DNA of 32,000 nt, taken from the NCBI GenBank assembly GCA_963662715.1, contig OY759724.1, forward strand, positions 2,370,001 to 2,402,000, given 5' to 3'. A model generated the notes under the pieces. It was not told where the DNA came from. It searched no databases and saw nothing but the letters and a program-made list of their open reading frames with translations. Positions 1,696 to 30,980 of the stretch are shown here, in pieces; within the stretch, counting starts at the first letter, position 1, and each line of letters begins with the position of its first letter. The position numbers were made by a program, and so were the translations under genes. The stretch is from Candidatus Omnitrophota bacterium. GTDB lineage: Bacteria > Omnitrophota > Gorgyraeia > Zapsychrales > JANLHA01.

Positions 1696-4649
<2,954 letters not shown>

Positions 4650-9757: not shown

Positions 9758-9761
9758 AAAA

Positions 9762-12902: not shown

Positions 12903-12907
12903 CATTG

Positions 12908-13544: not shown

Positions 13545-13937
13545 ATGCGCCAGGAATTAAATGATATTTTATTTGAGATTTGTGAACAGGATCCCCGTTA
13601 TAAGGATGACGCTTATGAATTTGTCCTGGAAGCCCTGTCCTATACGCAAAAGAAACTGCGCCGCTCGCGCCATGTGACAGGAAAGGAGCTCCTGGAGGGG
13701 ATCAAGGAATTGCTCATTGAAAAATTCGGCCCTTTAACTCTTGCGGTTTTACAGCATTGGGGTATTTATACAACGGAAGACTTCGGCCATATTGTTTTTA
13801 ACATGGTTGACAAAAAAGTCTTAAGCAAGACCGAAGAAGACAATATCGAAAGCTTCAAAAACGTTTATGATTTTGAAACTGTTTTTACCAAGGGTTACCG
13901 GGACAGATTGGACAAGCAGATCAGCAGATTGAGATAG
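13545..13937 (+). CDS. Minf_1886-like conserved hypothetical protein (family described as Verrucomicrobia/Planctomycetes-restricted)
   Basis: 130 aa. DPRYKDDAYEFVLEALSYTQ...HVTGKELLEGIKELLIEKFGPLTLAVLQHWGIYTTEDFGHIVFNMVD matches my recollection of this family. Not verifiable here. Confidence 0.6.
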   Translation: MRQELNDILFEICEQDPRYKDDAYEFVLEALSYTQKKLRRSRHVTGKELLEGIKELLIEKFGPLTLAVLQHWGIYTTEDFGHIVFNMVDKKVLSKTEEDNIESFKNVYDFETVFTKGYRDRLDKQISRLR

Positions 13938-14108
13938 TTTGGCCATGGCCCCCGGGCACGGGGCTTAGGCATGCAGGGCTGAATGTGGCGTATTAAATAA
14001 ATAGAGAATCGCTTTTTCCGGGCAGGGTTCATGAACCTTGCCTTTTTTCTTATAGCTCGTTACGGGCGTATCTGTTTTGAAAGAGCCAACCATAAGAAAG
14101 GATCCTAT

Positions 14109-14528
14109 ATGTCTGCCTATTTTTACGCTGTTCTAACGGCTTTAACCTGGGGATGCGTTCCTTTGATCGAAAAGATGGGATTAGTTAAACTCCCTCCGCT
14201 GGTGGGGCTTTTTTACCGGTGTCTCGGGGTTATCGCCGGGATCGTGCTGCTTCTGCTTTTTAAGGGAAAAGACATACGGGCATCCATGGCTGAACTGCAT
14301 ACAGGGATGCTGTTTTTGGTCCTGGGGGGATTTCTGGCCAGCGTTGTCGGGCAGTTGTTTTTTTATCATTCCCTGAAGCACGGGGAAGCCTCGAAAGTCG
14401 TGCCCCTGGCGGCGACATATCCTCTGGTGAGTTTTTTGCTGGGGGTTATTCTTTTAGGCGAGAAGGTGACGGCGGTGAAAGTGGGGGGCCTCCTTTGCAT
14501 ATTGGCCGGTGTTTTCCTGCTGAAATAA
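14109..14528 (+). CDS. Small EamA-domain (DMT superfamily) membrane transporter
   Basis: Five hydrophobic helices. Ends LGEKVTAVKVGGLLCILAGVFLLK, typical of the EamA C-terminus. Start taken at the ATG at 14109, preceded by aagaaagga, rather than the track start 14031. Confidence 0.75.
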   Translation: MSAYFYAVLTALTWGCVPLIEKMGLVKLPPLVGLFYRCLGVIAGIVLLLLFKGKDIRASMAELHTGMLFLVLGGFLASVVGQLFFYHSLKHGEASKVVPLAATYPLVSFLLGVILLGEKVTAVKVGGLLCILAGVFLLK

Positions 14529-14596
14529 GGAGGCTGTGATAGCCTCCCCGGTTAGGGCGTTCCCGGGGATGAGCCTGCCGAAGACAATTTTATCAA

Positions 14597-16681
14597 ATGC
14601 GACCTTTAAAAGATATATCCGTTCAGTACATCAAAGGCGTCGGTCCGGCTAAGAAGAAACTGTTTGAAAAACTGGGCATTGAAAGTGTTGAGGATCTCCT
14701 TTATTTTTTTCCCCGCCGGTATGAGGACCGTACGAATCTGGTGCCCCTGTCCCTCCTGAAAGCCGGAGACTTCCAGGCTGTGAGCGGCCGGGTTCTGGCC
14801 CGGGGCTCCCGGCGGAGCTGGTATACAAAGAAGCATGTCTATGAAATGGCTGTCGGTGACGGACAGGGCAAGCTGTTTGTGGTCTGGTTCAATCAGCCGT
14901 ATTTGGACAAGTATTTCAGCGTCGGCCGTCAGGTGATCCTCTACGGGAAGGTTGAATTATATAAGAACCGTCTGCAGATGGTTTCCCCGGAATATGAGAT
15001 CATTGAACGGGAAGATGATTTAAAGTTGAATATGGGCAGGATTGTGCCTGTCTACCCTTTAACAAAAGGGATTTCCCAGCGCTATTTAAGAAAGGTTGTT
15101 TTTCAGTGTATAGAAAAACATTTGAAGGATATGCAGGATATTCTGCCTGTATGGCTGCGTAATAAATACCGCCTGTCGAATATCCAGCGCAGTTTGCGGA
15201 ATATCCATTTCCCGGAAAGTTTTGATTCCCAGGAAAGTTCGCATAAGCGTATTTCCTTTGAAGAGTTTTTCCTTTTTCAGATTTCCGTGATGAAACGCCG
15301 CATGAGCATCGTGACCCAGAAGGGTTATGCCCATGCCATACCCCTTTCCCTGGTGAACGAATTTGAGGCGGCGTTCCCTTTCTCATTAACCAGGGCCCAG
15401 CAGAGAGTTGTCCGTGAAATAGCCGCCGACATGCAGAAGCCCGCCCCGATGCTGCGCCTGCTGCAGGGAGACGTCGGCTCCGGGAAAACGGTTGTCGCGC
15501 TCTTCGGCTGTTTGGCCGCCGTCCGCAACAACCGGCAGGCCGCCCTCATGGCCCCGACGGAGATACTGGCCCGGCAGCATGCGTCTTCTTTGCAGGCCTT
15601 GCTGGAAGGGACGTCTTTTCAGGACACGAAGATAGCCCTGCTGATAAGCGGTATGCCAAAGAAGCAAAAGGAGCAGGTCTGCCGCCGGTTAAGGGACGGA
15701 GAGATTGATATCATGGTCGGGACCCATGCCCTTTTGAGTGAGCATGTGGATTTTGCGGATTTGAGTTTTGTGGTTATTGATGAACAGCATAAATTCGGCG
15801 TAAGGCAGCGGGCGCTGCTGACGTCCAAGGGCGCCAATCCGGATGTCATGGTGATGACGGCGACTCCCATCCCCAGAACGTTGAGCCTGACCCTTTTCGG
15901 GGATTTGGATGTTTCGACGATCGATGAGATGCCGAAAAACCGGGGTAAGGTCGTGACCCAGCTGTACACCGCAGAGCAGTCCGGGGAGGTTTATCGTCTT
16001 GTCAGGGAAAAGGTGCGGCAGGGAGAACAGGCCTATATTGTTTATCCTATTGTTGAGACATCAGAAAAGCTCGATCTTAAAGCGGCCCAGGCCATGTTCG
16101 AGCATTTCCAGGAACATGATTTTAAGGGCTTGAAGATCGGGCTGGCCCACGGGCAGATGAAAAGGGCGCAAAGTGACGAGGTCGTGGCGCAGTTCAAAAG
16201 ACATGAGATTCAAATCCTTGTGGCAACGACGATCCTGGAAGTCGGAATCGATGTCCCCAACGCCAGTATCATGGTTATTGAACATGCCGAACGCTTCGGC
16301 TTGTCGCAGCTTCATCAGTTAAGAGGGCGGATCGGCCGGGGGCGGAAAGATTCGGTCTGCTATCTTCTTGCCGATCCTGGGACCCAGGACGGAAATGCGC
16401 GGCTGGACGCGATTCTGTCTTCGACAGACGGATTTAAGATCGCGGAACAGGATCTGCTTATTCGGGGGCCAGGGCAATACTTCGGCCGGCACCAGCACGG
16501 CCTTAATGAACTGAGGTTCGCCAATCCGGCCACTCAGGTGGATATCCTGGAACTGGCCCGTAAAGAGGCCGAAGACCTGGTCCATCGTGATGTGAATCTG
16601 AGGGACCGGCAGAATATTTTATTAAAACAGACGATTTTGGAACGTTATCCGACCTATTTGAGCCATGTGCAGGCCGGCTAA
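14597..16681 (+). CDS. recG: ATP-dependent DNA helicase RecG
   Basis: 694 aa. N-terminal wedge domain, LTRAQQRV, Walker A GDVGSGKT, DEQHKFG, and helicase C motifs HGQM...QLHQLRGRIGRG. Confidence 0.95.
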   Translation: MRPLKDISVQYIKGVGPAKKKLFEKLGIESVEDLLYFFPRRYEDRTNLVPLSLLKAGDFQAVSGRVLARGSRRSWYTKKHVYEMAVGDGQGKLFVVWFNQPYLDKYFSVGRQVILYGKVELYKNRLQMVSPEYEIIEREDDLKLNMGRIVPVYPLTKGISQRYLRKVVFQCIEKHLKDMQDILPVWLRNKYRLSNIQRSLRNIHFPESFDSQESSHKRISFEEFFLFQISVMKRRMSIVTQKGYAHAIPLSLVNEFEAAFPFSLTRAQQRVVREIAADMQKPAPMLRLLQGDVGSGKTVVALFGCLAAVRNNRQAALMAPTEILARQHASSLQALLEGTSFQDTKIALLISGMPKKQKEQVCRRLRDGEIDIMVGTHALLSEHVDFADLSFVVIDEQHKFGVRQRALLTSKGANPDVMVMTATPIPRTLSLTLFGDLDVSTIDEMPKNRGKVVTQLYTAEQSGEVYRLVREKVRQGEQAYIVYPIVETSEKLDLKAAQAMFEHFQEHDFKGLKIGLAHGQMKRAQSDEVVAQFKRHEIQILVATTILEVGIDVPNASIMVIEHAERFGLSQLHQLRGRIGRGRKDSVCYLLADPGTQDGNARLDAILSSTDGFKIAEQDLLIRGPGQYFGRHQHGLNELRFANPATQVDILELARKEAEDLVHRDVNLRDRQNILLKQTILERYPTYLSHVQAG

Positions 16682-18623: not shown

Positions 18624-19613
18624 TTGAATATCGTCGTTGATGCTATGGGAGGGGATTATGCTCCGGCTGCGGTTGTTGAAGGAGTAGTTGAAGCCATCAA
18701 AGACTTTGAGATAAACGTAGTTCTGGTCGGTATTCAGGAACAAATCGAAGCAGAGTTAAAAAAATATTCTTATCCCCCCGAACGCCTTAACATCATGCAC
18801 GCTCCGGATGTGATCGGAATGCATGAGCCTGCCACTGTCAGCATCAGGAAAAAACGCAAATCATCCATTACCATGGGAATCAAGCTGCTGGAAGAGTCGA
18901 AGTATGACGCTTTTATCAGTGCCGGAAATACCGGAGCCGTTGTCGCCGCCTCAACCATCAACCTGGGCATGCTGCCCGGAGTGGAACGGCCCGGGATCGG
19001 GTTGGTCATCCCGACGCTCGACAGTTTTTCTTTTATGATCGATGTCGGAGCCAACACCGACCCCAAACCCAAGCATTTGCTGCAGTCGTCACTTATGGCT
19101 GTTGTCTACGCCCGGGAAGTCCTGGGGGTGCAGAATCCCCGGGTCGGGCTGCTTAATATCGGGGAAGAAGAATCAAAGGGTACGGACTTTGTGAAAGAAA
19201 CGCACCGGATGATGTCGGCGCGCCTTGATAATTTTGTCGGCAATATTGAAGCCAATGATATCTTTTCCGGACGGTGCAACTGCATCATCTGCGACGGCTT
19301 TGCCGGGAATATCGTCATTAAAGTCTCGGAACACCTTATGGAATCCGCTGCGACGCTTATCCGCCGGGAGATTAAGAAGAGCCCGCTGGCTTTGCTCGGC
19401 GCGTTCTTAATGAAAACCCGTCTGGAGCAGATTAAGCGTTATGCCGATTATTCGGAATACGGCGGCGCTCCGTTGCTGGGCGTGAACGGCCTGGTGATGA
19501 TCAGTCACGGACGCTCGAGTTCCAAGGCGATTAAGAACGCTATCCGGGCCGCGAAACGGGAAATCGAACATAATATCATTTCTATTATGATAAAGGAGAT
19601 AAAAGCTAAATGA
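18624..19613 (+). CDS. plsX: Phosphate acyltransferase PlsX
   Basis: 329 aa. IVVDAMGGDYAP, ISAGNTGA, GANTD and PLLGVNGLVMISHGRSS motifs. TTG start preceded by gggagaagg. Confidence 0.93.
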   Translation: MNIVVDAMGGDYAPAAVVEGVVEAIKDFEINVVLVGIQEQIEAELKKYSYPPERLNIMHAPDVIGMHEPATVSIRKKRKSSITMGIKLLEESKYDAFISAGNTGAVVAASTINLGMLPGVERPGIGLVIPTLDSFSFMIDVGANTDPKPKHLLQSSLMAVVYAREVLGVQNPRVGLLNIGEEESKGTDFVKETHRMMSARLDNFVGNIEANDIFSGRCNCIICDGFAGNIVIKVSEHLMESAATLIRREIKKSPLALLGAFLMKTRLEQIKRYADYSEYGGAPLLGVNGLVMISHGRSSSKAIKNAIRAAKREIEHNIISIMIKEIKAK

Positions 19614-20587
19614 GAAGTGTCGGAATTGTTGCCACAGGCTCTTTTGTGCCTGATAAAGTTTTAACGAATGCTGATTTAGAAAAGATGGTTGACACCTCGG
19701 ATGAATGGATATTAACCCGTACAGGCATTAAAGAACGGAGAATCGCCGAGAAGCACGAGCGGAACAGTTTTCTGGCCAGCCGGGCGGCCAAAGATGTCTT
19801 GGCCCGCTCTCCGGTCAAAGCGGAAGATATCGAGTTGATCGTCGTGGCTACCATCAGCCCGGACAGCCCTTTCCCGTCGGTTGCCTGTCTTGTTCAAAAA
19901 GAAATCGGTGCGAAGAAAGCCGCGGCTTTTGATGTCAGTGCGGCCTGTGCCGGTTTCCTGTATGCTTTGACGACGGCGAAACAATATATCCAGACGGGCC
20001 TTTATAACAATGCCCTTGTGATCGCGGCTGAAAAATTCACTTCCTTTATCGACTGGAACGACCGCAGCACCTGCGTTCTTTTCGGTGACGGGGCCGGGGC
20101 CTGTATGCTGGCTCCTGTTGAAGACGGTAAAGGTATTGTCTCAGACCATCTTTTTTCCCAGGGGGATTCGGCAGAGCTTATGGCGGTGATCGTTGAGGAC
20201 CGGGAGCCTCTTAACCAGCAGAATACCATGATGCGTATCCCTTATGTGGAGATGCGCGGCCAGGAATTGTTTAAAGTCGCTGTCACATCCATGGCTGATG
20301 TCGCAAAGCTCGCTTTGCAAAAAGCCGGAGTCGGCATCGAGGACGTCGATTGCCTCGTGCCTCATCAGGCGAACGACCGGATTATTTCTGCCGTTGCCAA
20401 GAGGCTGGGGGTGCCCAAGGACAAGTTTTATATCAATATCCACCGTTACGGAAATATGTCGGCCGCTTCTTTGGCTGTCGCGCTGCACGAAGCCATTGCG
20501 GAAGGCCAGATTAAAGAAGGTTCTAACGTCGTATTGGCTGCCTTTGGTGCCGGACTCGTATCAGCCGCCAATGTCGTGAAGTTCTGA
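19610..20587 (+). CDS. fabH: 3-oxoacyl-ACP synthase III
   Basis: ATGA overlap with plsX. Catalytic Cys in AACAGFLYAL, His in VPHQAN, Asn in YGNMSAAS. Confidence 0.95.
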   Translation: MRSVGIVATGSFVPDKVLTNADLEKMVDTSDEWILTRTGIKERRIAEKHERNSFLASRAAKDVLARSPVKAEDIELIVVATISPDSPFPSVACLVQKEIGAKKAAAFDVSAACAGFLYALTTAKQYIQTGLYNNALVIAAEKFTSFIDWNDRSTCVLFGDGAGACMLAPVEDGKGIVSDHLFSQGDSAELMAVIVEDREPLNQQNTMMRIPYVEMRGQELFKVAVTSMADVAKLALQKAGVGIEDVDCLVPHQANDRIISAVAKRLGVPKDKFYINIHRYGNMSAASLAVALHEAIAEGQIKEGSNVVLAAFGAGLVSAANVVKF

Positions 20588-20747: not shown

Positions 20748-21659
20748 ATGAAAAAAGCTGCTTTTATATTCCCCGGCCAGGGCGCCCAGTACGTCGGTAT
20801 GGGCAAGGCGTTATATGACGCTTCCCCTGAGGCTAAAACTGTTTTTGAACAGGCGGACAAAATTTTAGGAAAGGACTTAACGCGGGTCATCTTCGAAGGC
20901 CCCGATGAAACCCTGATGTCCACGGCGTATTGCCAGCCGGCGATATTGACGGTGAGTTTTGCTGCGGTGAAGGCTTTGCAGGCGCGGGATATTCGGCCGG
21001 AGTTTGTCGCCGGATTGAGCCTGGGTGAACTGTCGGCTCTTGCCGTGAGCGGAGCGTTAAGCTTTGAAGAAACGCTTAAGCTGGTTGAGCGCCGGGCCGC
21101 TTTTATGGAGGAGGCGACAAAACTCAATGCCGGAAAAATGGCCGCGGTCATCGGCCTGGAAAAACAGCAGATTGCTGATGCCTGTCAGGCGACGGGCGCC
21201 GAGGTCGCCAATTTTAATTCTCCGCAGCAGATCGTCATTACCGGGCATGCGGATAAAGTGGATGCGGCCTGCCGGGTGCTTAAAGAGGCCGGAGCGAAAA
21301 ACGTTGTCGTGCTGGACGTGGCCGGAGCTTTTCATTCAAGCTTGATGCAGACGGCGGAAGATAAATTTAAAGAGGAACTGCAGCAATATGATTTTAAGCC
21401 GGCGAGCATCCCGATTGTTTCCAACGTGGACGCCAGACCGGCTGTCCGGCCCGAAGTGATCCGAAGTAATCTTGCGCGGCAAATTACATCTTCTGTCCAG
21501 TGGGTCGATTCGGTGAACTTTATGGCCGGGCAGGGGGTGGAGTCTTTTTTTGAGGTCGGTCCCGGGAAAGTCCTGAAAGGATTAATGCGGCGGATCAATA
21601 AGGGCTTGACGGTGCAGAATATTGAAAAGCCGGAAGACATTGCGGCACTTGACCTTTAG
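20748..21659 (+). CDS. fabD: Malonyl-CoA:ACP transacylase
   Basis: FIFPGQGAQYVGMG, active-site GLSLGELSAL, GAFHS. Confidence 0.95.
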   Translation: MKKAAFIFPGQGAQYVGMGKALYDASPEAKTVFEQADKILGKDLTRVIFEGPDETLMSTAYCQPAILTVSFAAVKALQARDIRPEFVAGLSLGELSALAVSGALSFEETLKLVERRAAFMEEATKLNAGKMAAVIGLEKQQIADACQATGAEVANFNSPQQIVITGHADKVDAACRVLKEAGAKNVVVLDVAGAFHSSLMQTAEDKFKEELQQYDFKPASIPIVSNVDARPAVRPEVIRSNLARQITSSVQWVDSVNFMAGQGVESFFEVGPGKVLKGLMRRINKGLTVQNIEKPEDIAALDL

Positions 21660-21861: not shown

Positions 21862-21891
21862 TTGACGGTAAATAGACATCACTACTATAAT
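21862..21891 (+). promoter_or_regulatory. Candidate sigma70-type promoter for the FabZ-like/KAS operon
   Basis: TTGACG (21862-21867), 18-nt spacer, TATAAT (21886-21891), in an AT-rich 260-nt gap after fabD. 27 nt upstream of the ATG at 21919. Confidence 0.4.
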
Positions 21892-21918: not shown

Positions 21919-22371
21919 ATGTCGCAAAAAATTAATAATTATCAGTTGCATAAAATCCTTCCGCACACTTATCCTTTTCTTTTAATAGACTATGTAGAAA
22001 AATTTACGAAAGGGAAAAACCTCACAGCCATTAAAAATATTACGGTCAACGAATGGCCGTTTACAGGCCGGGTCAATTTCTCTAACCGCTACCCGGAAAT
22101 ACTGCTGATAGAAGCGTCCGCTCAGGCCGCATTGGTTTTGTATTATTTGACTTTTGAAGATGACCCGAACCGCCCGTTGCCGATTATCGGCCGGGTCGCG
22201 GCGGAGTTTGCCGGGGATGTCTCTGCGGGGGATCAGGTCAGAATCGAAGTGACCGGCGGGAAGTATATGCGAAAAGGAGGGTATTCGTTTATTGATATCT
22301 TTCACGATCAGCAGGTTTTGGCGCGGATTAAAATTATTTACGGAGTCTTACCCAGGAAAAGAACGTTATGA
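21919..22371 (+). CDS. FabZ/FabA-like hotdog-fold protein with catalytic His replaced by Arg
   Basis: LPHTYPFLLIDYV...AIKNITVNEWPFTGRVNF...ILLIEASAQA aligns position-for-position with E. coli FabZ LPHRFPFLLVDRV...NEPFFQGHFPG...LILEAMAQA. The His of GHFP is Arg51 (cgg, 22069-22071). The Glu is retained. Confidence 0.8.
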   Translation: MSQKINNYQLHKILPHTYPFLLIDYVEKFTKGKNLTAIKNITVNEWPFTGRVNFSNRYPEILLIEASAQAALVLYYLTFEDDPNRPLPIIGRVAAEFAGDVSAGDQVRIEVTGGKYMRKGGYSFIDIFHDQQVLARIKIIYGVLPRKRTL

Positions 22372-22490
22372 TAAAAGCCGTCCAATCCCCTAAAAGACGC
22401 GTTGTGGTGACCGGGCTGGGCGTTGTGTCCTCTATCGGCATAGGCTGGCAGGAATTCTGGAAGAATATTATTGCCGAAGAATTTACCTGA
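22368..22490 (+). pseudogene. 40-codon N-terminal remnant of a beta-ketoacyl-ACP synthase (not in ORF track)
   Basis: My translation is MIKAVQSPKRRVVVTGLGVVSSIGIGWQEFWKNIIAEEFT*. ATGA overlap with the FabZ-like stop. Residues 12-31 are identical to residues 8-27 of the intact KAS at 23717. It then diverges and stops. Confidence 0.8.
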
Positions 22491-22568
22491 ATTTGTTGTA
22501 GATTTAGAGTAAAAAATTTTTTGTAACCTTGGGTGACTTATAAAAGAACTCAAAAGAGAGGGGTAAAG

Positions 22569-23720
22569 ATGTTCAATGATGTAGAATCAAAGATTAAAGC
22601 TATTTATAATAAAAAGTATTATGAGGTTTTTCATCTAGGGAAGGTTTTTACCGTGGAACTTGTGCGGAAGATATTAATCGAATCTTTAATTGTAGAAAAA
22701 TTATCTCAAAAAGAAAGTACATTGCAACAAATTAAAGATGAATTAATATTTGCTGATAATTCAATCCCCGCATTAAGATGGCTGATGGAGTTTGCCTGTG
22801 AAGAAGAATTAATTAATAAAGAATTTTTCAATGAAGAATGGAGATATTCTTTAAAAGGAGAATTTTTAAAAAGAGACCTACAGTTACTTGCTAATAATAT
22901 TTTAGATCTTGATCCTGGTTGGAAGACATTTATTCAGTTGATGCGGATAGTTGCTGATGATTATCCATTATTTTTTAAAGGAAAAAAGACTGGAATAGAA
23001 ATTTTATTTGCAAAAGACCGCGCTCATTATTGGGATGCTTATTTTGGAAACGTTTATAGTGCGTATACTGCTTATAATGAGTTTGGGGCTTTATTAGCTT
23101 CAGAAGTTATTGCTTTGAAAGAACATCCTTTAATTTTAGAAATAGGCGCGGGAACGGGAGGTGCGACTGAAAAGTTGCTAGATTTATTGAAAAAAAGAGA
23201 CCTTTTGTCGAGAATGAGTCAATATATTTACTCTGATATTTCTCCTCTTTTTTTGAGAACTGGAAATAAAGTTTTGATGAGATATCTTGGCCCTGATATG
23301 GATTATGATTTATTTAAAGTAGATTTTAACAAATCTTTCACAAATCAAAAAATTAAAGAAGAAAGTGTTGATGTTGTGTATGGTGTAAATGCCTTGCATG
23401 TATCGAAGAATTTATTGCAAACATTGAATTCTATAAAAGAGATATTAAAACCAGAAGGATATTTAGTTGTTTGTGAGGTTATTCGATCTCAAAAAAACAA
23501 ACCGTTATTTTTAGAACTCATTTTTAACATATTAGATTCATATACACAAGTTGATATTGATCCCGATTACAGATTTTCTCATGGCTTTTTAACCTTTGAA
23601 GAATGGAAACGTGCTTTAGAAATAGCAGGTTATGCTAAGGTTGAAATTTATGATAATGTTTGTGGCAATTCCCAGGAAAAACAGGAAATAATAGCCGGTG
23701 TTATTGTGGGACAAAAATGA
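22569..23720 (+). CDS. Class I SAM-dependent methyltransferase (Methyltransf_12 / PKS C-methyltransferase-like) with ~180-aa N-terminal helical extension
   Basis: Motif I ILEIGAGTGGATEKLL, post-I YSDISP, VVYGVNALHVSKNLLQTLNSIKEILKPEGYLVVCE. Start set at the ATG at 22569, preceded by gagagggg. The track start 22533 is a GTG. Confidence 0.8.
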   Translation: MFNDVESKIKAIYNKKYYEVFHLGKVFTVELVRKILIESLIVEKLSQKESTLQQIKDELIFADNSIPALRWLMEFACEEELINKEFFNEEWRYSLKGEFLKRDLQLLANNILDLDPGWKTFIQLMRIVADDYPLFFKGKKTGIEILFAKDRAHYWDAYFGNVYSAYTAYNEFGALLASEVIALKEHPLILEIGAGTGGATEKLLDLLKKRDLLSRMSQYIYSDISPLFLRTGNKVLMRYLGPDMDYDLFKVDFNKSFTNQKIKEESVDVVYGVNALHVSKNLLQTLNSIKEILKPEGYLVVCEVIRSQKNKPLFLELIFNILDSYTQVDIDPDYRFSHGFLTFEEWKRALEIAGYAKVEIYDNVCGNSQEKQEIIAGVIVGQK

Positions 23721-24925
23721 TTATGAAAGAAAAAAAAGTTGTTGTTACAGGGCTAGGAGTTGTTTCCTCTATTGGTATAGGTTGGCAGGAATTTTGGGGG
23801 AATCTTTTAGCTGGGAAATCAGGGATTAGCAGGGTATCTTCTTTTGATACTTCAGAATATGATCGTCATAATGCTGGAGAAGTAAAGATTTTTAAATCAA
23901 GAAAATTTATTGCTGAAAAGAAATCTAAAAGATTGGGCAGATCTTCCCAAATGGCTATAGCTGCGAGTTTGCTTGCTCTAGAAGATGCGAAAATAGTCGT
24001 TAACGATCAAATATCTAAGAAAGGAATTGTCTGTGTCGGCACGACAACAGGAGAAATCGGGATTTTTATTAAATATCATGATAATAAATTTAGAGGTGAA
24101 GTAAAATTTGACTCTAATCTAATATCTGTTTTTCCTGCGAACTCAGTTGCCTCAAATATTGCTATTCAAAATGATTTTCGAAGTCAAAATATTACTTTTG
24201 GCACAGCATGTGCCTCGGGTAATTATGCAATATCTTACGCATTTGATTTAATTAAATCTGGACAGGCTGATTATGCTTTGGTCGGTGGTAGTGATGTCTT
24301 TTCAAGAATGGTCTTTGCGGGATTTTGTAAATTATTTGCAGTTGCCCCCCAGATGTGCCAACCTTTTGATAAGAATAGGAAAGGTATGATCCCAGCAGAG
24401 GGAGCTGGGTGCCTTTTTTTAGAATCTCTTATGTCTGCGAAGGAACGAAATGTAGATATATATGCAGAGATTTTGGGATACGGATTGTCTTGTGATGCTT
24501 TTCATATGACTAAGCCTTCACCAGAGGGAATCTTTAAGGCAATTAAAAAAGCAATCGTGAATTCTGATATTTCACCATCTGATATTGATTATGTTTCTGC
24601 ACATGGCACGGGTACTAGAGAAAATGATATTGCCGAGTGTGCGGCAGTAAAGAAAATATTGAAGAACAATGTTCCTATGAGTTCAATAAAATCAATGTTA
24701 GGCCATACTTTGGGAGCTGCTTCTGCTATTGAAGCTATCTCTTGTTGTTTATCCGTTTCTACGGATCAGATTCCCCCAACTATAAATTATGAAACTCCCG
24801 ACCCGTTATGTGATGTTGACTGTGTGCCGAATGTTAGTAGAAATAAAAAAGTACGAGTGGTATTGAATAATTCGTTAGCTTTTGGGGGAAATAATTGTTG
24901 CGTGATTTTTAAAAAAATTGATTAG
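23717..24925 (+). CDS. Beta-ketoacyl-ACP synthase, elongating (FabF/FabB-like, Cys-His-His) of a non-housekeeping subfamily
   Basis: KKVVVTGLGVVSSIG, active-site Cys in GTACASGNYA, His in VSAHGTGT and SMLGHTLGAAS, C-terminal AFGGNNCCVIFKK. ATGA overlap with the methyltransferase stop. The track start 23660 lies inside the upstream gene. Confidence 0.88.
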   Translation: MIMKEKKVVVTGLGVVSSIGIGWQEFWGNLLAGKSGISRVSSFDTSEYDRHNAGEVKIFKSRKFIAEKKSKRLGRSSQMAIAASLLALEDAKIVVNDQISKKGIVCVGTTTGEIGIFIKYHDNKFRGEVKFDSNLISVFPANSVASNIAIQNDFRSQNITFGTACASGNYAISYAFDLIKSGQADYALVGGSDVFSRMVFAGFCKLFAVAPQMCQPFDKNRKGMIPAEGAGCLFLESLMSAKERNVDIYAEILGYGLSCDAFHMTKPSPEGIFKAIKKAIVNSDISPSDIDYVSAHGTGTRENDIAECAAVKKILKNNVPMSSIKSMLGHTLGAASAIEAISCCLSVSTDQIPPTINYETPDPLCDVDCVPNVSRNKKVRVVLNNSLAFGGNNCCVIFKKID

Positions 24926-24945
24926 TTAAAAAGTGGTGAGAATCT

Positions 24946-26046
24946 ATGAAAAAAGCCGCAATGTTGTTTCATCCCCCGAATTTGACAATTGTTGATGAAA
25001 CCGTTGTCAAGGTTATGCCTTTTTTAAAGAATTTATACTCTCGTATTTCAGAAATTAAGAAAAAAAATTTTTTTAGAAGATGTCCACCCTTTAAATTTTT
25101 TAATGTTGATAATTTTGAGTCAGTAACTGGGAAAAAGATTGGATTACTTGGGGTTATGCTTCCGTGGTTCCCAGAACAATTAGTGTCTGGAGATCGTCAA
25201 GTAGTTCAAAAAGAAATTCTTAAAGCAATTTCTTTGGCAAAAAAGAATAAAGCAGAAATTATTACTTTGGGGGCTTTTACATCTATAGTAACGAATCAAG
25301 GGAAAGATTTGGTTGGGAAAACACCCATTGCAATAACTAGCGGAAATACTTATACGGCAGCTTTGTGTATCCGTTCTATTTTTGAAATATGTCAAAAATT
25401 AGAGGTTGATTTAAATAAGGTCAGCTTATGTATTGTTGGGGCAACTGGAGATATTGGTAGTATGTGTGCGAAAGTCCTTTCAAAATATGTTAAGAAATTA
25501 ATTTTATGTTCAAGAAGTATTTCAAACACAAGTGAAATTGTTGTTGAGATTGAGAGAAATATGAACAAAAGGCCAATCATTATGAATCAGCAAGATGAGG
25601 CAGTTAGAGAAGGCGACATTATTATTAGCGCAACTAGTTCGTGGGGGTTGTTATTTAATCATTTAGATTTAAAGCCTGGGACGATATTATGTGATATCTC
25701 TATGCCGCCGAATGTCGCTAGAAATATTCGAAAGGAACGAAAGGATATTTTAGCTTATTCAGGGGGAAGAGCACAGTTTTTAAATTTTATGCATATCAAG
25801 AATCCTATTTGGAAGGCAATGTTTCCTACTAATAATATATATGGTTGTATGGTAGAATCACTAATTTTGGCATTAGAAGATAGATTTGAGAATTTTTCTT
25901 TGGGAAGAGCCACTTCTGATGAGAAAAAAATAGACGAGATATATGACTTGGGGATAAAACATGGTTTTTCTCTAGCAAAATTTAATAATTTTAATTATAT
26001 TTATTCAATAGAAGATTTTAATTATATCAAATCAATTTTACATTAA
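24946..26046 (+). CDS. Acyl-ACP reductase (cyanobacterial AAR)-like NAD(P)-dependent reductase
   Basis: LGAFTSIV, ITSGNTYTAALC, VGATGDIGSMCAKVL (Rossmann), IYGCMVESLILALE (Cys301 at 25846-25848), NFSLGR...IDEIYDLGIKHGF. These parallel AAR blocks LGGFTSII, TTGNTHTAYV, VGATGDIGSAV, FACFAEAMLLEFE, NFSWGR...ASVRHGF, which I recalled from memory. Confidence 0.7.
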   Translation: MKKAAMLFHPPNLTIVDETVVKVMPFLKNLYSRISEIKKKNFFRRCPPFKFFNVDNFESVTGKKIGLLGVMLPWFPEQLVSGDRQVVQKEILKAISLAKKNKAEIITLGAFTSIVTNQGKDLVGKTPIAITSGNTYTAALCIRSIFEICQKLEVDLNKVSLCIVGATGDIGSMCAKVLSKYVKKLILCSRSISNTSEIVVEIERNMNKRPIIMNQQDEAVREGDIIISATSSWGLLFNHLDLKPGTILCDISMPPNVARNIRKERKDILAYSGGRAQFLNFMHIKNPIWKAMFPTNNIYGCMVESLILALEDRFENFSLGRATSDEKKIDEIYDLGIKHGFSLAKFNNFNYIYSIEDFNYIKSILH

Positions 26047-26051
26047 TAATT

Positions 26052-28247
26052 ATGATAGGTAATTTAGAGAATATATTATCAATAGCCACTTTTGTGACAT
26101 TTTTGTTGTTTTTAGTGTTAGCCATTTTCCTTGTTACAAAAAATATAAGATCCTCCACCAATATTTCTTTTTCTCTCGTTTGTGTAAGTGCCTCAATTTG
26201 GTCTTTAAACTATTCAATAGCATACAGATCTGTCGATACTGATGTAGCTTTATTTTGGTTTAAGATAGGATATGTTGGAGTTATGTTTATTGCTATTACT
26301 TATTTTCATTTTGCGATAGTCTTTCTAAGACTAAAGAACATGTTCAAATATGTAAGCTTAAACTATATAGCAGGAATTTTCTTAACAGGGCTACTTTTAA
26401 ATTCTAATATGCTTATTAGTGGCCTTAATGTATTTTCTTGGGGAAGATATCCGAAGGCCGGAAGTTTGCACCCGATCTTTTTGTTGTATTTTTTTGCATT
26501 AGTAAATATCGCAACGATTCAATTAGCAGTAGCTTTTATCAAAAAAAGGAAGACAATTCCTTTAACGCAGGTTCAGCAGCTAAAATATATATTGTTCGCT
26601 TTTAGTATTTATACAATAAATTCTATAGATTTCATTCCTAATTATGGAATTAGTATCCTCCCTGTCGGGTTCATCCCGGCAACGATTTTTATGAGTATAA
26701 TCGTTTATAGTATTGTTAAATTCCGCCTGATGGATATCTCCGTCGCCATCACTCGTACAAGTATTTTCGTCGCAGTTTATTCTCTTGTCCTTGGTATTCC
26801 TTTTGCTCTTGCCTTTGGGTGGCGTGCCCGTCTGCAGAATATTCTGGGGGAGGGGTGGTGGTTGGCGCCTTTAGTTAGTTCTACGGTTTTAGCCACAGCC
26901 GGGCCGTTTATTTATCTTTACATCCAGAAAAGAGCGGAAAACCGCCTGTTCCAGGAGCAGAAAAGGTATCAATCCACCTTGAGGCAGGCTTCGGCCGGTA
27001 TGGGCCGGATAAAAGATTTAAACCGTTTGGTGAACTTGATCGTCCACATCGTCAGCAGGACTGTCCGCTTGGAACATGCTTTGGTGTATTTGCAGGACCC
27101 GCAGACGCGGACATATGTTTTAAAGGCTCATCGAAGCCGGGCTGTAAGGTTCAAAACCCAGGATGTTATCGAGAGTAATTCAGAAATTGTCAAAGTGTTA
27201 AACCGGGAGCGGGAGCCTGTCGTCTATGAGGAGATTAAACAGCAGACCCAGGATTACGGGGATTTGAAGCTGGCCCGTTTGGAAACGGAATTAGCCGCTA
27301 TTAATGCTGCTTTGGTGGTGCCTTGTTATATTGATGAAAAATTGCTGGCGATGATTATCCTCGGCAGAAAGATGTCGAATGATTTATATTCTGAAAGCGA
27401 CCTTGCTGTTTTCTCCATCCTGGCTAATCAGGCGGCCTTGGCCATGGAAAATGCGATGTTTTATGAAGAAATGAAAAACACCCATGCCCAGCTTATGAAA
27501 GCGGAAAAAATGGCAACGATCGGGACCATGGCGGACGGGCTTTCCCATCAGATTAATAACCGCCTTCACGCCTTGGGCTTTATTGCCGGAGATGCTCTGG
27601 ATACGATAAAGTACAAAAAAGACGTGCTTATGAAAGACCCGGAAGTGAAGGAAATTATGGTTGACCTGGAGCATGCTTTGAATAGAATAGAGGATAATGT
27701 GACGCAGGGCGGAGAAATTGTCCGGGGCTTGTTGAAATATACCCGTAAGGGAGAGGAAGGCTTTTCCGATCTGGAGTTTGACCAGCTGATCAATGCTTCT
27801 GTGGAGATGACCCAATTTAAGATCAAGCCGGGAGAGCTGCAGATCTTAAGAGAGTACGGCGCGGACATTCCGAAAATAAAGGGGAATTTTACCCAGCTTC
27901 AGGAAGTGTTCTTTAACCTCATTGATAATGCTTATGATGCGATGATGCAGAGGAAAGCCGAGCTTAAAGAAAAAGAATATAGCCCGACGATTAAGATTTT
28001 CGCTCAGGGGGATAATAACGGCGGGATAAATATCCGCTTTGAAGACAACGGGATCGGTATTAAGGACGAAGATAAGATGAAGCTTTTTACCCCGTTCTTT
28101 ACGACGAAATTATCGAGTAAGAAAGGCACGGGGCTGGGCCTTTATGTCATTCAGAAGCTGATCGAAGAAAATCATGAAGGGAAAGTCGCCTACAGTTCCG
28201 TGTATCAGCAGGGGACGAATGTATCGATTTATCTTCATTCTGTTTAA
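26052..28247 (+). CDS. Sensor histidine kinase: N-terminal 7TM sensor region, GAF, HisKA, HATPase_c
   Basis: 731 aa with ~7-8 hydrophobic helices in the first ~290 aa. GAF-like segment LVNLIVHIVSRTVRLEHALVYL...AALVVPC. H-box MADGLSHQINNRLHAL, N-box FNLIDNAYDAM, G-boxes EDNGIGI and GTGLGLYV. Starts 5 nt after the AAR-like stop. Confidence 0.88.
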   Translation: MIGNLENILSIATFVTFLLFLVLAIFLVTKNIRSSTNISFSLVCVSASIWSLNYSIAYRSVDTDVALFWFKIGYVGVMFIAITYFHFAIVFLRLKNMFKYVSLNYIAGIFLTGLLLNSNMLISGLNVFSWGRYPKAGSLHPIFLLYFFALVNIATIQLAVAFIKKRKTIPLTQVQQLKYILFAFSIYTINSIDFIPNYGISILPVGFIPATIFMSIIVYSIVKFRLMDISVAITRTSIFVAVYSLVLGIPFALAFGWRARLQNILGEGWWLAPLVSSTVLATAGPFIYLYIQKRAENRLFQEQKRYQSTLRQASAGMGRIKDLNRLVNLIVHIVSRTVRLEHALVYLQDPQTRTYVLKAHRSRAVRFKTQDVIESNSEIVKVLNREREPVVYEEIKQQTQDYGDLKLARLETELAAINAALVVPCYIDEKLLAMIILGRKMSNDLYSESDLAVFSILANQAALAMENAMFYEEMKNTHAQLMKAEKMATIGTMADGLSHQINNRLHALGFIAGDALDTIKYKKDVLMKDPEVKEIMVDLEHALNRIEDNVTQGGEIVRGLLKYTRKGEEGFSDLEFDQLINASVEMTQFKIKPGELQILREYGADIPKIKGNFTQLQEVFFNLIDNAYDAMMQRKAELKEKEYSPTIKIFAQGDNNGGINIRFEDNGIGIKDEDKMKLFTPFFTTKLSSKKGTGLGLYVIQKLIEENHEGKVAYSSVYQQGTNVSIYLHSV

Positions 28248-28295: not shown

Positions 28296-28661
28296 ATGCC
28301 CAAGCTGTTGATCGTTGATGATGAGATGGATATACGCGAATTCGCGAGAAACTTTTTTAAAAAAAGAGGCATAAACGTGTTCACGGCCAGCGGTGGCGGT
28401 GATGCTTCGGAAATCATTGAGAACGAAAAGCCCGATTTGATTCTGCTGGATGTGCGTATGGAAGAGATCACCGGGGTGGAGCTGCTTAGAGATATCCGGC
28501 AGAAAGGGAATGATACAAAAGTTATTATGGTAAGCGGGGTGGAAGATGATTCTATCATTGACGAATCAAAAACACTGGGAATTTTGGGTTTTATTCATAA
28601 ACCGCTTATTTTGGATGAGCTGGAGAAGATCGTTTTAAAAGAGCTCCAGCAAGAGCAGTAA
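28296..28661 (+). CDS. Stand-alone response regulator receiver (CheY-like)
   Basis: KLLIVDDE, DLILLDVRM (phospho-Asp), VIMVSG, FIHKP. No output domain. Confidence 0.9.
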   Translation: MPKLLIVDDEMDIREFARNFFKKRGINVFTASGGGDASEIIENEKPDLILLDVRMEEITGVELLRDIRQKGNDTKVIMVSGVEDDSIIDESKTLGILGFIHKPLILDELEKIVLKELQQEQ

Positions 28662-28724: not shown

Positions 28725-29921
28725 ATGGCTATGACAAAGCATAAGAGAATCGATTATAAAAGAGAGCTGGAGGCCGCCAGCAAGGGCATGATCATGATCC
28801 ATGACCCGAAGCTCCTGATCAAGCTCATTGTGCGTATGATCGTGAATAAAGTCATGATCAAGCATGCCGGTATGATCCTTTATGAACCGGAGAAAGACGC
28901 TTATGTGTTAAGCATTTCCCGGGGGGAGACGGGGTTTAAAGTCCCGGCGGGGTTTGCCCGTTTTAGCACAAACCATTCGGTTATCAAATTATTTACCGAA
29001 AAAGAATACCGGGCGCTTACCATAAACAAGAATGCCATTCTTGTCCAGGATCTCAACAGGCTGATCTGGCAGGAGAGTATCCTGAACAGTAAAAACGGCA
29101 ATCAGCAGCTTCTGCATGACGTGGGGGAGCAGATGCAGATGTTTAATGCGGTTGCTTGTGTTCCGGCTTATTATCAGGACAAGTTGCTCGCCGTCCTGTT
29201 GCTGGGCGAGAAGAACGACGGCAACAGCTTTGATCAGGAAGAACTGGATTTTTTTGCTGCTTTAGCTTCGGATGTCGCGATGGCTATCCGGAACGCCCAG
29301 CTGTTTATGGATCTTAAACGGGAGTCGGAAAAGAACCATGACTTGTTTCTCAGGACGATGATGGTTTTAGGGCAGGCGATTGAAGTTAAAGACAAATATA
29401 CACATGGCCATACCAAAAGGGTGACGGATTTTGCCGTTGCCATTGCCAAGCAAATGATCCTTAACGGATCGGCGGATTTTGATGACGTTTTCCTGGAGGA
29501 TTTGTATATCGCCGGAATGCTGCATGATATCGGGAAGATCGGGGTGCCGGAAGAAGTCCTTAACAAGAATGGCCGGCTCTCAAAAGAGGAATATGAAATT
29601 ATCAAGCTTCATCCCCAGTACGGCGTGGAAATTTTATCCCCGCTGTCTGAATTGAAGCAGAGTCTGGACGGAGTCCATTACCACCACGAAAGGTATGACG
29701 GTGCCGGCTACCCGGAAGGGTTGAAGGGAGCCGAAATCCCGATCGTGGCGATGATCATTTCTGTTGCAGATGCGTTTGACGCGATGACGACCGACCGTCC
29801 TTACCGCCCGGGCATGACAAAAGGACAGGGTGTTGAAGAAGTCAAGAGAAACTCCGGGACCCAATTTCACCCCAAGCCTGTCCAGGCCTTAGTCGAATTG
29901 TTCGAAATGGGCCGCTTGTAA
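28725..29921 (+). CDS. GAF domain-containing HD-GYP phosphodiesterase (c-di-GMP hydrolase family)
   Basis: GAF-like N-terminal half (ACVPAYYQDKLLAVLLLGEK). HD-GYP half has THGHTKRV, MLHDIGKIGVP, HHERYDGAGYPEGL and DAFDAMTTDRPYR. Confidence 0.9.
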   Translation: MAMTKHKRIDYKRELEAASKGMIMIHDPKLLIKLIVRMIVNKVMIKHAGMILYEPEKDAYVLSISRGETGFKVPAGFARFSTNHSVIKLFTEKEYRALTINKNAILVQDLNRLIWQESILNSKNGNQQLLHDVGEQMQMFNAVACVPAYYQDKLLAVLLLGEKNDGNSFDQEELDFFAALASDVAMAIRNAQLFMDLKRESEKNHDLFLRTMMVLGQAIEVKDKYTHGHTKRVTDFAVAIAKQMILNGSADFDDVFLEDLYIAGMLHDIGKIGVPEEVLNKNGRLSKEEYEIIKLHPQYGVEILSPLSELKQSLDGVHYHHERYDGAGYPEGLKGAEIPIVAMIISVADAFDAMTTDRPYRPGMTKGQGVEEVKRNSGTQFHPKPVQALVELFEMGRL

Positions 29922-30030: not shown

Positions 30031-30393
30031 TTATGTTGTTAGGTTTTTTCTCACCACGCTCAGAATTTCTTCCGCCTTAAATGGTTTAACGACATAGCCG
30101 TCAGCACCTAATTTTACAGCTTCCGTAGCTGTCTCCTCAGACGCATAGATGGTCACCATAATAACTCCCACGCCGGGATAATCATTTTTGATGTGTTTAA
30201 GTATTTCCAGCCCATTGCTGCTTGGCATTTTGATATCCAGCAGAACCAGGCCAATCTCCTTGTCGTTCGCAAGGCAGTCAAGGCCTTGTCCGGCGTCTTC
30301 TGTGACAATCAGTTCATAAAAGTCACTGAGAATCAACTTAAGTGACTCCCGTACTCCTTCTTCGTCATCAATGATTAAAATTTTTTTTGACAT
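30031..30393 (-). CDS. Stand-alone response regulator receiver (CheY-like)
   Basis: KILIIDDEE, LVLLDIKMP, IMVT, VVKPF. Start set at the Met of MSKKIL (30393), where GGAGG sits 5 nt upstream on the coding strand. The track start 30405 falls within that RBS. Confidence 0.88.
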   Translation of the reverse strand: MSKKILIIDDEEGVRESLKLILSDFYELIVTEDAGQGLDCLANDKEIGLVLLDIKMPSSNGLEILKHIKNDYPGVGVIMVTIYASEETATEAVKLGADGYVVKPFKAEEILSVVRKNLTT

Positions 30394-30428
30394 TGGGGCC
30401 TCCATAATTTTAAAAAATAAGGGATAGG

Positions 30429-30980
30429 TTATAATTCTACCGGAGTCGTAACAGAGATCAATTTAGCCGGTCCGCTGCCGGTATTCTCAACAAAATGCTT
30501 AAGCGTGGCATTAAAATACAATGTATCATTGGGTTTAAGGGGGTGGCTTCTTTCTCCTACATGCAGGATGAGTTCTCCCTCCAAGATAAAGATGAATTTT
30601 TCCGTGCCGGGACGGTTTTGCTCGAGACTTGTCCTGCCGCCTTCCTCGATACGTAAGACAACAGGCAGCATTTTTTTGTTCATGATATTTCCTGTTAGAA
30701 TTTCATAGGAAGCTTTGTCGTTGTAAGTGAATGATTCGGGGGCGTCCCCGAGCTCGGCCTGAACCATTGATTTTTGCGTGGTTTCAACCCCTTTATATAG
30801 CTCAATCAGGTCAACACCCAGGGCTTGGGCTATCCGCATATGAGATTCCAGCGTGCCGGTCATTTTCATGTGTTCGATCCGGCTTAGGGTTGCAATCTGA
30901 ATTCCGCTTTTTTCGGCCAGATCTTTTAATTTTAAATTTTTTGCTTTCCGCAATTCTTTTATTTTCTTTCCTAGTTCCAT
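30429..30980 (-). CDS. XRE-family HTH transcriptional regulator with C-terminal cupin domain
   Basis: N-terminal HTH_3 LGKKIKELRKAKNLKLKDLAEKSGIQIATLSRIEH. C-terminal cupin GTEKFIFILEGELILHVG...DTLYFNATLKHFVENTG. Confidence 0.88.
   Translation of the reverse strand: MELGKKIKELRKAKNLKLKDLAEKSGIQIATLSRIEHMKMTGTLESHMRIAQALGVDLIELYKGVETTQKSMVQAELGDAPESFTYNDKASYEILTGNIMNKKMLPVVLRIEEGGRTSLEQNRPGTEKFIFILEGELILHVGERSHPLKPNDTLYFNATLKHFVENTGSGPAKLISVTTPVEL

Follow-up and report, generated by a model that had tools for sequence, protein, structure and literature searches.

We analysed a 32,000-nucleotide stretch of the genome of a Candidatus Omnitrophota bacterium (contig OY759724.1, positions 2,370,001 to 2,402,000; hereafter the window), and in particular a group of genes between positions 21919 and 26046 that encode a FabZ-derived hotdog protein, a stand-alone methyltransferase (MT) of the kind found in polyketide synthases (PKS), an elongating β-ketoacyl-acyl carrier protein (ACP) synthase (KAS) and a thioester reductase of the AAR/PigE-N family (AAR, acyl-ACP reductase). 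We tentatively favour the view that these genes specify a specialised ACP-dependent module for chain extension, α-methylation and reductive release, carried on an exchangeable cassette that is coupled to a sensor. Each of the enzyme families is known; what is new is the combination of discrete enzymes with AAR-type release, the FabZ paralogue without its catalytic His, and a mosaic that joins the cassette to the sensor domain of the neighbouring kinase. The enzyme families, the catalytic residues, the synteny and the mosaic described below were observed directly.

Base composition sets the cassette apart from its surroundings and gives it a foreign look, a feature that the original prediction had missed. 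The GC content at third codon positions (GC3) was 0.57-0.60 in plsX, fabH and fabD, 0.51 in the hotdog gene and 0.56 in a short KAS remnant that follows it. GC3 was only 0.22 in the MT gene, 0.25 in the KAS gene, 0.25 in the reductase gene and 0.32 in the first 233 codons of the adjacent histidine kinase gene, which encode its seven-transmembrane (7TM) domain, and was 0.51-0.61 in the rest of the kinase gene and in the genes for the response regulator (RR) and the HD-GYP protein that follow. The left edge of the low-GC block (Table 1) lies near 22475, inside the KAS remnant, where the resemblance to KAS ends, and the right edge near 26750, at the border between the 7TM and GAF domains of the kinase gene. 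Neither transposase nor integrase genes were seen in the block, and the sole notable flanking repeat was the duplicated 5' end of the KAS gene. The window proteins were searched by tblastn against 82 loci (given L numbers here), and gene calls were made for L001. GC3 in L003, L008, L023, L083, L085 and L090 was 0.23-0.36 over the cassette genes and the 7TM domain, compared to 0.5-0.75 for the GAF-kinase part and the flanks; in L001 it was likewise low over both segments.

The original prediction had taken the ATGA at 22368-22371 as an overlap coupling the hotdog gene to the MT gene, but this ATGA starts a 40-codon open reading frame (ORF) that reads MIKAVQSPKRRVVVTGLGVVSSIGIGWQEFWKNIIAEEFT and then stops. 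Because the peptide matches the N-terminus of FabF (28 bits, E 9e-7) and a 74-nt alignment of the DNA with the start of the intact KAS gene (23738-23811), 1.3 kb downstream, shows 80% identity, the ORF is identified by its sequence as the 5' stump of a resident KAS gene. Where the two copies differ, the remnant mostly has G or C and the intact gene A or T; the remnant is host-like in GC3, and its end is the start of the low-GC block. The same ATGA junction, between the stop of the hotdog gene and the start of the KAS gene, is native in L001. The MT gene starts at ATG 22569, after a gap of 78 nt and with a ribosome-binding site, GAGAGGGG, in agreement with the alignment of homologues. Reading it from the ATGA at 22368 is ruled out by an in-frame stop at 22488-22490, and GTG 22533 is disfavoured by the homologue alignment and the ribosome-binding site. 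A 3' remnant of a donor hotdog gene was considered in 22491-22530 (ICCRFRVKNFL), a very short stretch.

The KAS stump is direct evidence that the block was joined into the resident locus of the window genome. The simplest account, we infer, would be that the cassette was imported as one piece, with one crossover placed in the kinase gene and the other junction, an illegitimate join, in the KAS 5' end. A truncated remnant beside an abrupt change in GC could also mean that the assembly is chimeric, or that the locus was scrambled recently and has lost its function, but we consider this extremely unlikely: all four ORFs are intact with their catalytic residues kept, the reading frame of the kinase is continuous across the change in GC, the same GC pattern occurs in independent assemblies of other lineages, and the overlap of the MT and KAS genes is kept in L083 and L085. 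Identical proteins are also on record from a single 3.36-Mb contig.

Comparison of the related loci showed what stays in place around the cassette and what is exchanged within it. The order (plsX-fabH-fabD)-hotdog-KAS-reductase-7TM kinase-RR-HD-GYP was found in L001, L003, L008 and L023, and parts of it in L002, L004, L005 and L018; MT was absent from every one of these loci. The RR gene kept its position in L001, L003, L004, L008, L023, L083 and L090, and the HD-GYP orthologues were 59-62% identical across loci. The closest homologues of the reductase all came from metagenome-assembled genomes of Candidatus Omnitrophota. Adjacency of MT and KAS recurred in four lineages. The gene order was hotdog-MT-KAS-KAS2-7TM kinase in L083/84 and L085/86, in the same chromosomal slot and with the ATGA overlap between MT and KAS, and hotdog-KAS-MT-KAS2-7TM kinase in L090; in L091 the order was KAS-MT on a contig too short to show the reductase slot. 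KAS2, which occupies the slot of the reductase in L083 (10386-11693), L085 (10385-11659) and L090 (3737-5023), is a divergent second KAS of 424-435 aa that is catalytically intact (Cys-His-His kept), 25-30% identical to the orthologous group of the window KAS (KAS-B, described below), and accompanied by a different type of 7TM domain. It may provide an alternative chain-release or condensation step.

The synteny that the original prediction proposed as a check was found in pairs and not as a triple. KAS and reductase were paired, within the order hotdog-KAS-reductase-7TM kinase-RR-HD-GYP, in about 20 Omnitrophota loci, and MT and KAS in the four lineages above, but MT, KAS and reductase together were found nowhere else among 80 genome loci, 80 metagenome loci, the contigs of six MT homologues and the nearest KAS homologues. 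Just one reductase was closer (P0002, 72%), and its contig, at 1.3 kb, is too short to be informative.

The kinase gene shows the same division as the base composition. In an all-against-all comparison of nine kinases the cytoplasmic part was 53-73% identical regardless of cassette type, and the one closest to that of the window kinase (69%) came from L085, a locus of the KAS2 type. Identity in the 7TM domain was 50-56% among the window, L001, L003 and L004, which are of the reductase type, 33-41% among loci of the KAS2 type and only 17-30% between the two types. Within the reductase-type loci, pairwise identity of the reductase was correlated with that of the 7TM domain (Spearman 0.76) and hardly with that of the cytoplasmic part (0.12), both over 15 pairs that are not independent. 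As the 7TM domain and not the cytoplasmic part co-varies with the cassette, and as low GC3 is common to both, the enzymes and the 7TM membrane domain share a history distinct from that of the surrounding genes.

One interpretation of this shared history is that the locus is a signal-and-receptor cassette, in which a signal derived from fatty acids (an aldehyde, or a compound made from one) is produced by the enzymes and sensed by the 7TM kinase, which relays it to the RR and the HD-GYP protein. We consider this somewhat unlikely, although several features point to it. The reductase stop lies 5 nt from the kinase start, and the two genes overlap in L001; the breakpoint falls at the 7TM/GAF border; one slot is taken by either the reductase or KAS2, and the type of 7TM domain differs accordingly; and both cassette type and reductase divergence are tracked by the 7TM domain but not by the GAF-kinase part, the RR or the HD-GYP protein. 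The architecture also has precedents. The agr hypervariable region of staphylococci spans agrB-agrD-agrC (PMC10482373), and in the rpf-1 and rpf-2 variants of Stenotrophomonas the RpfF and RpfC N-termini are fully associated (PMC4517397). A further parallel is offered by the diffusible signal factor (DSF) system, whose signals are made from acyl-ACP of fatty-acid synthesis (FAS) and act, through the sensor RpfC, on the HD-GYP regulator RpfG (PMC4542539, PMC4504480).

Stated in full, the idea would make the locus a lipid counterpart of the agr and rpf pherotypes, with an exchangeable AT-rich cassette that encodes the signal enzymes together with the matching 7TM ligand-binding domain, and we hold this version to be just as doubtful. 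A methyl-branched aldehyde would be the signal in the window, a condensation product that of the KAS2 variants, and lineages would carry different signal-receptor pairs in the same slot. However, co-variation might also arise from physical linkage in a recombination hotspot, or because the kinase monitors some property of the membrane that the lipid changes. The comparison covers just nine kinases, there is no synthase of the RpfF, CqsA or LuxI type, and we know of no ligand for HisKA_7TM domains. A signal-receptor role concerns what the product is for and is compatible with the chemistry of extension, methylation and release that we prefer.

The MT is the enzyme that distinguishes the window from its reductase-type relatives. 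Its motifs ILEIGAGTGG and NALHV...LKPEGYLV are present as the original prediction had them, and the likeness to the C-methyltransferase (C-MT) domains of PKS proved to be true homology by profile, fold and catalytic dyad. Pfam returned generic class I methyltransferase families only (Methyltransf_12, 44.8 bits), and all significant sequence matches among solved structures were PKS C-MTs: DisA/DszA (DisA, 3e-20), AprA MT2, CurJ, PsoF, PksCT and LovB. The profile of the stand-alone MT family matched the CurJ C-MT best by far (E 3e-59, 204 bits). An AlphaFold2 model of the MT (predicted local distance difference test score 92.5) was superposed by Foldseek over its full length on CurJ, AprA MT2, DszA and PksCT, with template modelling (TM) scores of 0.79-0.83. 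For CurJ the scores were 0.82 normalised to the query and 0.83 to the target over 389 columns, and for DszA and PksCT 0.79; the predicted match includes the N-terminal helical subdomain that caps the core. In the S-adenosylmethionine (SAM) motif I, ILEIGAGTGG, the residues E191, G193, G195 and G197 are invariant in 10 family members, as are His277 (NALHV) and Glu303 (VVCEV) in the family alignment. These two align with the His of NVVHA and the Glu of LNE in the DisA C-MT, and the His-Glu dyad of C-MTs has a catalytic role (PMC9821293).

The MT is a free-standing ORF of 383 aa and is not embedded in a type I megasynthase. An exhaustive HMMER search returned 113 MT cluster representatives at E<=1e-30, comprising free proteins of about 380 aa and domains in megasynthases of 3,000-7,500 aa, with about 30 similar stand-alone representatives beside the embedded domains. 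Of the 80 metagenome loci retrieved with the family profile, 79 were type I modules of the ketosynthase (KS)-acyltransferase (AT)-...-MT kind. The nearest relatives outside the small stand-alone family are thus C-MT domains of type I PKS modules, and the family is rare: an indexed search returned 11 matches. Further members lie beside a type I PKS (L089), inside an aryl-polyene-like cluster (L088) and among other methyltransferases (L087). The L088 cluster (5002-15179), whose stand-alone MT is 30% identical, also encodes an AMP-ligase, ApeI-like and ApeP-like dehydratases, a flavin halogenase, an ACP, a lipid A-type acyltransferase, LolA_3 and MMPL.

The substrate of the MT might instead be malonyl-ACP or methylmalonyl-ACP, in which case the product would be a propionyl or branched starter, or a methylmalonyl extender, and no β-keto intermediate would be methylated. 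MT domains of AprA methylate malonyl- or methylmalonyl-ACP, or couple methylation to decarboxylation, and AprA MT2 was the top structural match (E 1.3e-21, TM 0.82) and the third-best profile match (157 bits). There was also a weak match to the malonyl-ACP methyltransferase BioC (27 bits in NCBIfam; 8x8i, E 5e-4). However, the far better profile match was CurJ, a β-keto C-MT, and the invariant His-Glu dyad is typical of that class, so that we judge a malonyl substrate very unlikely. A BioC-type O-methyltransferase was rejected as the main assignment of the MT, the score of 27 bits lying far under the cut-off of 185.

The KAS has the Cys-His-His triad that had been predicted, intact, and also the Lys and the gating Phe (ACAS, AHGT, GHTL, IKSM and AFGG, aligned to E. 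coli FabF). It scored 400 against TIGR03150 (cut-off 493.75) and 383.4 against the FabF subfamily model NF005589 (cut-off 387), and was 38% identical to E. coli FabF and 41% to the FabF of the canonical fabG-acpP-fabF of L020. Identity was 52-60% to a large Omnitrophota-specific orthologous group that we term KAS-B, and the nearest KAS in 5.8 billion proteins was 61% identical. KAS-B orthologues sit in larger clusters with their own ACP, a FabG-like short-chain dehydrogenase/reductase (SDR), a KAS-A resembling chain-length factors (CLF) and a reductase. Judged by these comparisons the window KAS is not of the housekeeping FabF type.

The hotdog protein belongs to the FabA/FabZ family, as predicted, yet it has lost the residue on which a normal FabZ depends. 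It scored 46.6 bits against Pfam FabA and matched solved FabZ structures at E 1e-17, but its scores against the NCBIfam FabZ models (80 and 71 bits) were under the cut-offs of 113 and 155. Alignment to solved FabZ and to orthologues showed the catalytic His replaced by Arg (GHFP to GRVN). The position is variable among eight orthologues (R, D, F, N, P, Q), none of which has the His, and the His is lost in those of L001, L003, L005, L008, L023, L083 and L085; a second group of Omnitrophota loci has hotdog proteins that retain GHFP. The Glu of the central helix was kept in the window protein and its orthologues (LLIEASAQ, aligned with ILEAMAQ; IEA.AQ motif), and a weak ApeP-like match was seen in relatives. 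Because the catalytic His is missing, the protein would not be a normal FabZ and, on this alignment, cannot dehydrate by the FabZ mechanism. It would more likely serve as a substrate-binding or partner subunit than as a dehydratase, much as mycobacteria have non-catalytic HadA and HadC beside the catalytic HadB. In FabZ each active site takes its His from one subunit and its Glu from the other, so a heterodimer with a genuine FabZ would keep one site.

These two proteins bear on a more ordinary explanation, that the locus is housekeeping: the KAS would be the main FabF of the cell, the hotdog protein a FabZ variant, the reductase a source of aldehydes and alcohols for bulk lipids such as ether lipids, and the kinase a regulator of membrane homeostasis. 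The module directly follows plsX, fabH and fabD, which have the identical order in the window, L003, L005, L018, L023, L083 and L085, and the KAS falls just short of the FabF subfamily cut-off. KAS-B occurs very widely across Omnitrophota (hundreds of clusters, 54-61% identical), and the window has no dedicated ACP. This explanation nevertheless appears distinctly unlikely, given the loss of the catalytic His from the hotdog protein and its orthologues. In L020 a canonical fabG-acpP-fabF (acpP 71% and fabF 54% identical to E. coli) coexists with a KAS-B cluster, and L012 has a canonical FabF (49%). AT-rich, fast-diverging genes that are swapped for alternatives (reductase or KAS2, with or without MT) are, moreover, unexpected of a housekeeping function.

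The reductase was predicted to be AAR-like, and it is a family member that keeps the catalytic Cys. Its only Pfam match was to the nucleotide-binding domain of Shikimate_DH, and it is only because of this match that several NCBI homologues carry the name "shikimate dehydrogenase". The profile of the reductase family scored 196 bits against PigE-N (4PPM), 173 bits against AAR (6JZQ) and about 25 bits against shikimate dehydrogenase. With PigE-N and AAR scoring six to eight times higher, the assignment as a shikimate dehydrogenase was rejected, and the clustering with shikimate or quinate dehydrogenases that the original prediction had thought might undo it was not seen. The NCBIfam scores were 165 for PigE (cut-off 850) and 115 for AAR TIGR04058 (cut-off 449.7), which places the protein, by its sequence, in the AAR/PigE-N family without making it an AAR orthologue. 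The nucleotide-binding motif GATGDIG (GxTGxIG) is invariant in the family, as is Cys301 (YGCMVE). Cys301 aligns with AAR Cys294 (6JZQ), which we take to be the catalytic Cys carrying the acyl-enzyme intermediate. PigE's N-terminal domain reportedly reduces a thioester to an aldehyde (PMC8341465). A 33%-identical homologue of the reductase occurs in Algoriphagus zhangzhouensis (Bacteroidota; L048, 9159-12979) directly after a ferritin-like Ald_deCOase gene resembling the aldehyde-deformylating oxygenase (ADO), and is followed by DUF3419 and a fatty-acid desaturase; it is an AAR/ADO-like pair outside cyanobacteria.

More distant Omnitrophota loci (L010, 8745-17497; L006, L011, L013, L016, L022) carry a larger set of genes. 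These fuller clusters encode a KAS-A without the Cys, His and His (CLF-like), the reductase, a FabG-like SDR, a dedicated ACP (DLGMDSMMALE), KAS-B and a FAD amine-oxidase/phytoene-desaturase-like protein (about 483 aa), sometimes a FabZ that contains the His and sometimes a nitroreductase, and they always end with a 7TM kinase. Since the distant loci carry this fuller set, the window module is best placed, on gene content, as the reduced end of a family of specialised clusters resembling type II PKS and FAS. The FabZ-FabF-desaturase-like part of the fuller clusters recalls the putative ladderane cluster of anammox bacteria (PMC10139942).

Taken together, the enzymes suggest the following route. 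An acyl-ACP would be extended by one C2 unit by KAS-B with malonyl-ACP and the ACP of the cell, whose use we presume because the window has none; a tblastn search of the window with E. coli AcpP and four Omnitrophota ACPs gave no match, as the original prediction had it. The β-ketoacyl-ACP so formed, on which enzymes of this class usually act, would be methylated at its α-carbon by the C-MT, a malonyl extender being less probable. β-Processing by the housekeeping FabG, FabZ and FabI would come next, and the reductase would then load the acyl chain on Cys301 and release it as an aldehyde with NAD(P)H. The substrates, the order of the steps and the 2-methyl aldehyde as the product are purely what we infer.

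Several points weigh against this route. Co-function of the MT, KAS and reductase is unsupported by conservation, because no locus examined other than the window has all three. The window contains neither a ketoreductase (KR) nor an enoyl reductase, and no partner that would consume the aldehyde (ADO or a fused aminotransferase); to our knowledge, FabG, FabZ and FabI of type II systems are not known to process 2-methyl intermediates. The KAS, lying just under the FabF subfamily cut-off and following plsX-fabH-fabD, could still be the main elongating KAS of the cell. As for the coupling to the sensor, the correlated identity pairs are not independent, and the low GC of the 7TM domain could owe a little to amino-acid composition.

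The gene layout is given in Table 1. Five same-strand ORFs are packed between 21919 and 26046, and three details were as predicted: the MT stop and the KAS start share the ATGA at 23717-23720, the reductase gene follows after a gap of 20 nt, and plsX, fabH and fabD lie upstream. The region's best promoter-like sequence falls within the 259-nt AT-rich spacer 3' of fabD and precedes the hotdog start codon by 28 nt. The HD-GYP protein is probably a c-di-GMP (cyclic di-GMP) phosphodiesterase, judging by its motifs. Downstream of it lie divergently oriented genes for a receiver protein (30031-30405, minus strand) and a helix-turn-helix (HTH)-cupin regulator (30429-30980, minus strand). The L001 module is also trailed by a receiver and HTH-cupin pair, plus a HisKA kinase; the regulatory neighbourhood is thus conserved beyond the HD-GYP gene.

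Table 1. Features of the window in the order of their positions (block limits approximate)
Feature	Position	Strand	Remarks
Partial rRNA operon (16S-tRNA-Ile-tRNA-Ala-23S-5S)	1-4831		Opens the window
16S rRNA, partial	1-995		
tRNA-Ile(GAT)	1217-1293		
tRNA-Ala(TGC)	1306-1381		
23S rRNA	1696-4650		
5S rRNA	4715-4831		
plsX	18624-19613	+	Housekeeping fatty-acid/phospholipid initiation; host-like GC3
fabH	19610-20587	+	Housekeeping initiation; host-like GC3
fabD	20748-21659	+	Housekeeping initiation; host-like GC3
Promoter-like site TTGACG-18-TATAAT	21862-21891	+	11 of 12 positions match; consensus match only
Hotdog protein, FabZ-derived	21919-22371	+	150 aa
KAS remnant	22368-22490	+	40 codons
Low-GC block	22476-26750		About 4.3 kb; MT, KAS, reductase and kinase 7TM domain; GC3 0.22-0.32
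Stand-alone PKS-type C-methyltransferase (MT)	22569-23720	+	383 aa
Elongating KAS	23717-24925	+	402 aa
AAR/PigE-N family thioester reductase	24946-26046	+	366 aa
7TM-GAF histidine kinase	26052-28247	+	HisKA_7TM from 26052 to about 26750, then GAF and HATPase
Stand-alone receiver-domain RR	28296-28661	+	121 aa; L001 orthologue matches Pfam Response_reg
GAF-HD-GYP protein	28725-29921	+	398 aa; HDIGK and HHERYDGAGYP motifs; L001 orthologue matches Pfam HD_5 and HD

The upstream part of the window is occupied by other functions. The rRNA operon can be used for precise placement of the organism. It is followed by a MORN-PAS-GAF-GGDEF diguanylate cyclase (5057-7549), a MarR regulator (7708-8139), a 560-aa protein with OEP outer-membrane efflux repeats (8075-9757) and an AcrB-type resistance-nodulation-division (RND) pump (9762-12902); between these genes a separate one for a membrane-fusion protein was not seen. 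Two ORFs had no Pfam match at E<=1e-4, one of 172 aa at 12908-13426 on the minus strand and one of 130 aa at 13545-13937 on the plus strand. After the regulatory and efflux genes the order is recG, rsmD, coaD, yceD, plsX, fabH and fabD. Several relatives, though not the window, have small PDDEXK_3 and 23S_rRNA_IVP/bAvd-type genes inserted between yceD and rpmF and between the kinase and RR genes (L083, 4600-5019 and 15309-15695; L085, 13967-14335; L090, 7238-7633), which suggests that the neighbourhood is prone to small insertions.

Omnitrophota is a large uncultivated phylum. Our searches of the literature, which covered Omnitrophota together with acyl-ACP reductase, stand-alone C-MTs in FAS and clusters of non-cyanobacterial AAR and KAS, returned no work on its lipid biosynthesis and nothing on this module. 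If our reading is correct, the module would be a type II route of discrete enzymes to α-methyl-branched fatty aldehydes, using a liberated PKS C-MT and AAR-type release, a combination useful for engineering branched oleochemicals. The wider reach of the finding is architectural, in that a single AT-rich unit with conserved flanks moves the enzymes along with the membrane domain by which the adjacent kinase senses. This yields a testable prediction on what HisKA_7TM kinases sense and suggests that types of lipid signal or receptor have diversified in Omnitrophota; interest in the locus would rise sharply if the signal-receptor reading were true.

The module can be compared with known systems enzyme by enzyme and as a whole. 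The PKS C-MT domains of CurJ (5THY), DszA/DisA (6CCA), AprA MT2 (6D6Y) and PksCT (CMeT, 5MPT) share the fold, the SAM motif and the His-Glu dyad of the window MT, which differs in being a free bacterial protein beside discrete type II KAS genes. Its structural relatives also include PsoF and CalH, trans-acting C-MTs of fungal PKS systems. AAR (6JZQ) and PigE-N (4PPM) have full-length homology, the nucleotide-binding motif and the catalytic Cys in common with the window reductase, at only about 27-30% identity. In contrast to AAR and PigE, the window reductase has no ADO partner and no fused aminotransferase, its partner genes being those for the KAS and the 7TM kinase.

The claim that no described pathway has this combination agrees with the literature that we searched, but there is a partial precedent in AmxMT1 of anammox bacteria (PDB 8HD2), a stand-alone class I methyltransferase with a PKS C-MT-like fold and a His-Glu dyad that is encoded in a type II FAS cluster (PMC9821293). 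AmxMT1 binds ACP and has been proposed to methylate the Cα of β-ketoacyl-ACP to give a branched lipid (PMC9821293). AmxMT1 and the window MT embody the same concept, a stand-alone C-MT-like enzyme beside type II FAS-like genes. Homology between them was not detectable, 8HD2 being absent from the best 60 of 74 PDB profile matches (E<=10) and from the top 50 Foldseek matches. Anammox Planctomycetota and Omnitrophota are both placed in the Planctomycetes-Verrucomicrobia-Chlamydiae (PVC) group. The anammox clusters, unlike the window, have their own ACPs together with radical SAM enzymes and a phytoene-desaturase-like enzyme; an AAR-type reductase is not reported from them.

Highly reducing type II PKS and aryl-polyene systems resemble the fuller Omnitrophota clusters (L010, L011, L013, L022) in having a KS with a CLF, an ACP, a KR and a dehydratase (DH). 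Relative to them the window has lost the CLF, ACP and SDR and has AAR-type release in place of a thioesterase or acyltransferase; compared to aryl-polyene systems it also lacks an aryl starter ligase and the LolA and MMPL export genes. The agr and rpf loci differ from the window in their enzymes, there being no AgrB/D and no RpfF crotonase, and in that the HD-GYP protein of the window is separate and not fused to the receiver. With the DSF system the window would share an HD-GYP protein in the output and FAS acyl-ACP as the precursor pool. With agr and rpf it shares the arrangement in which the biosynthetic genes vary with the membrane input domain of the adjacent kinase while the cytoplasmic part is conserved.

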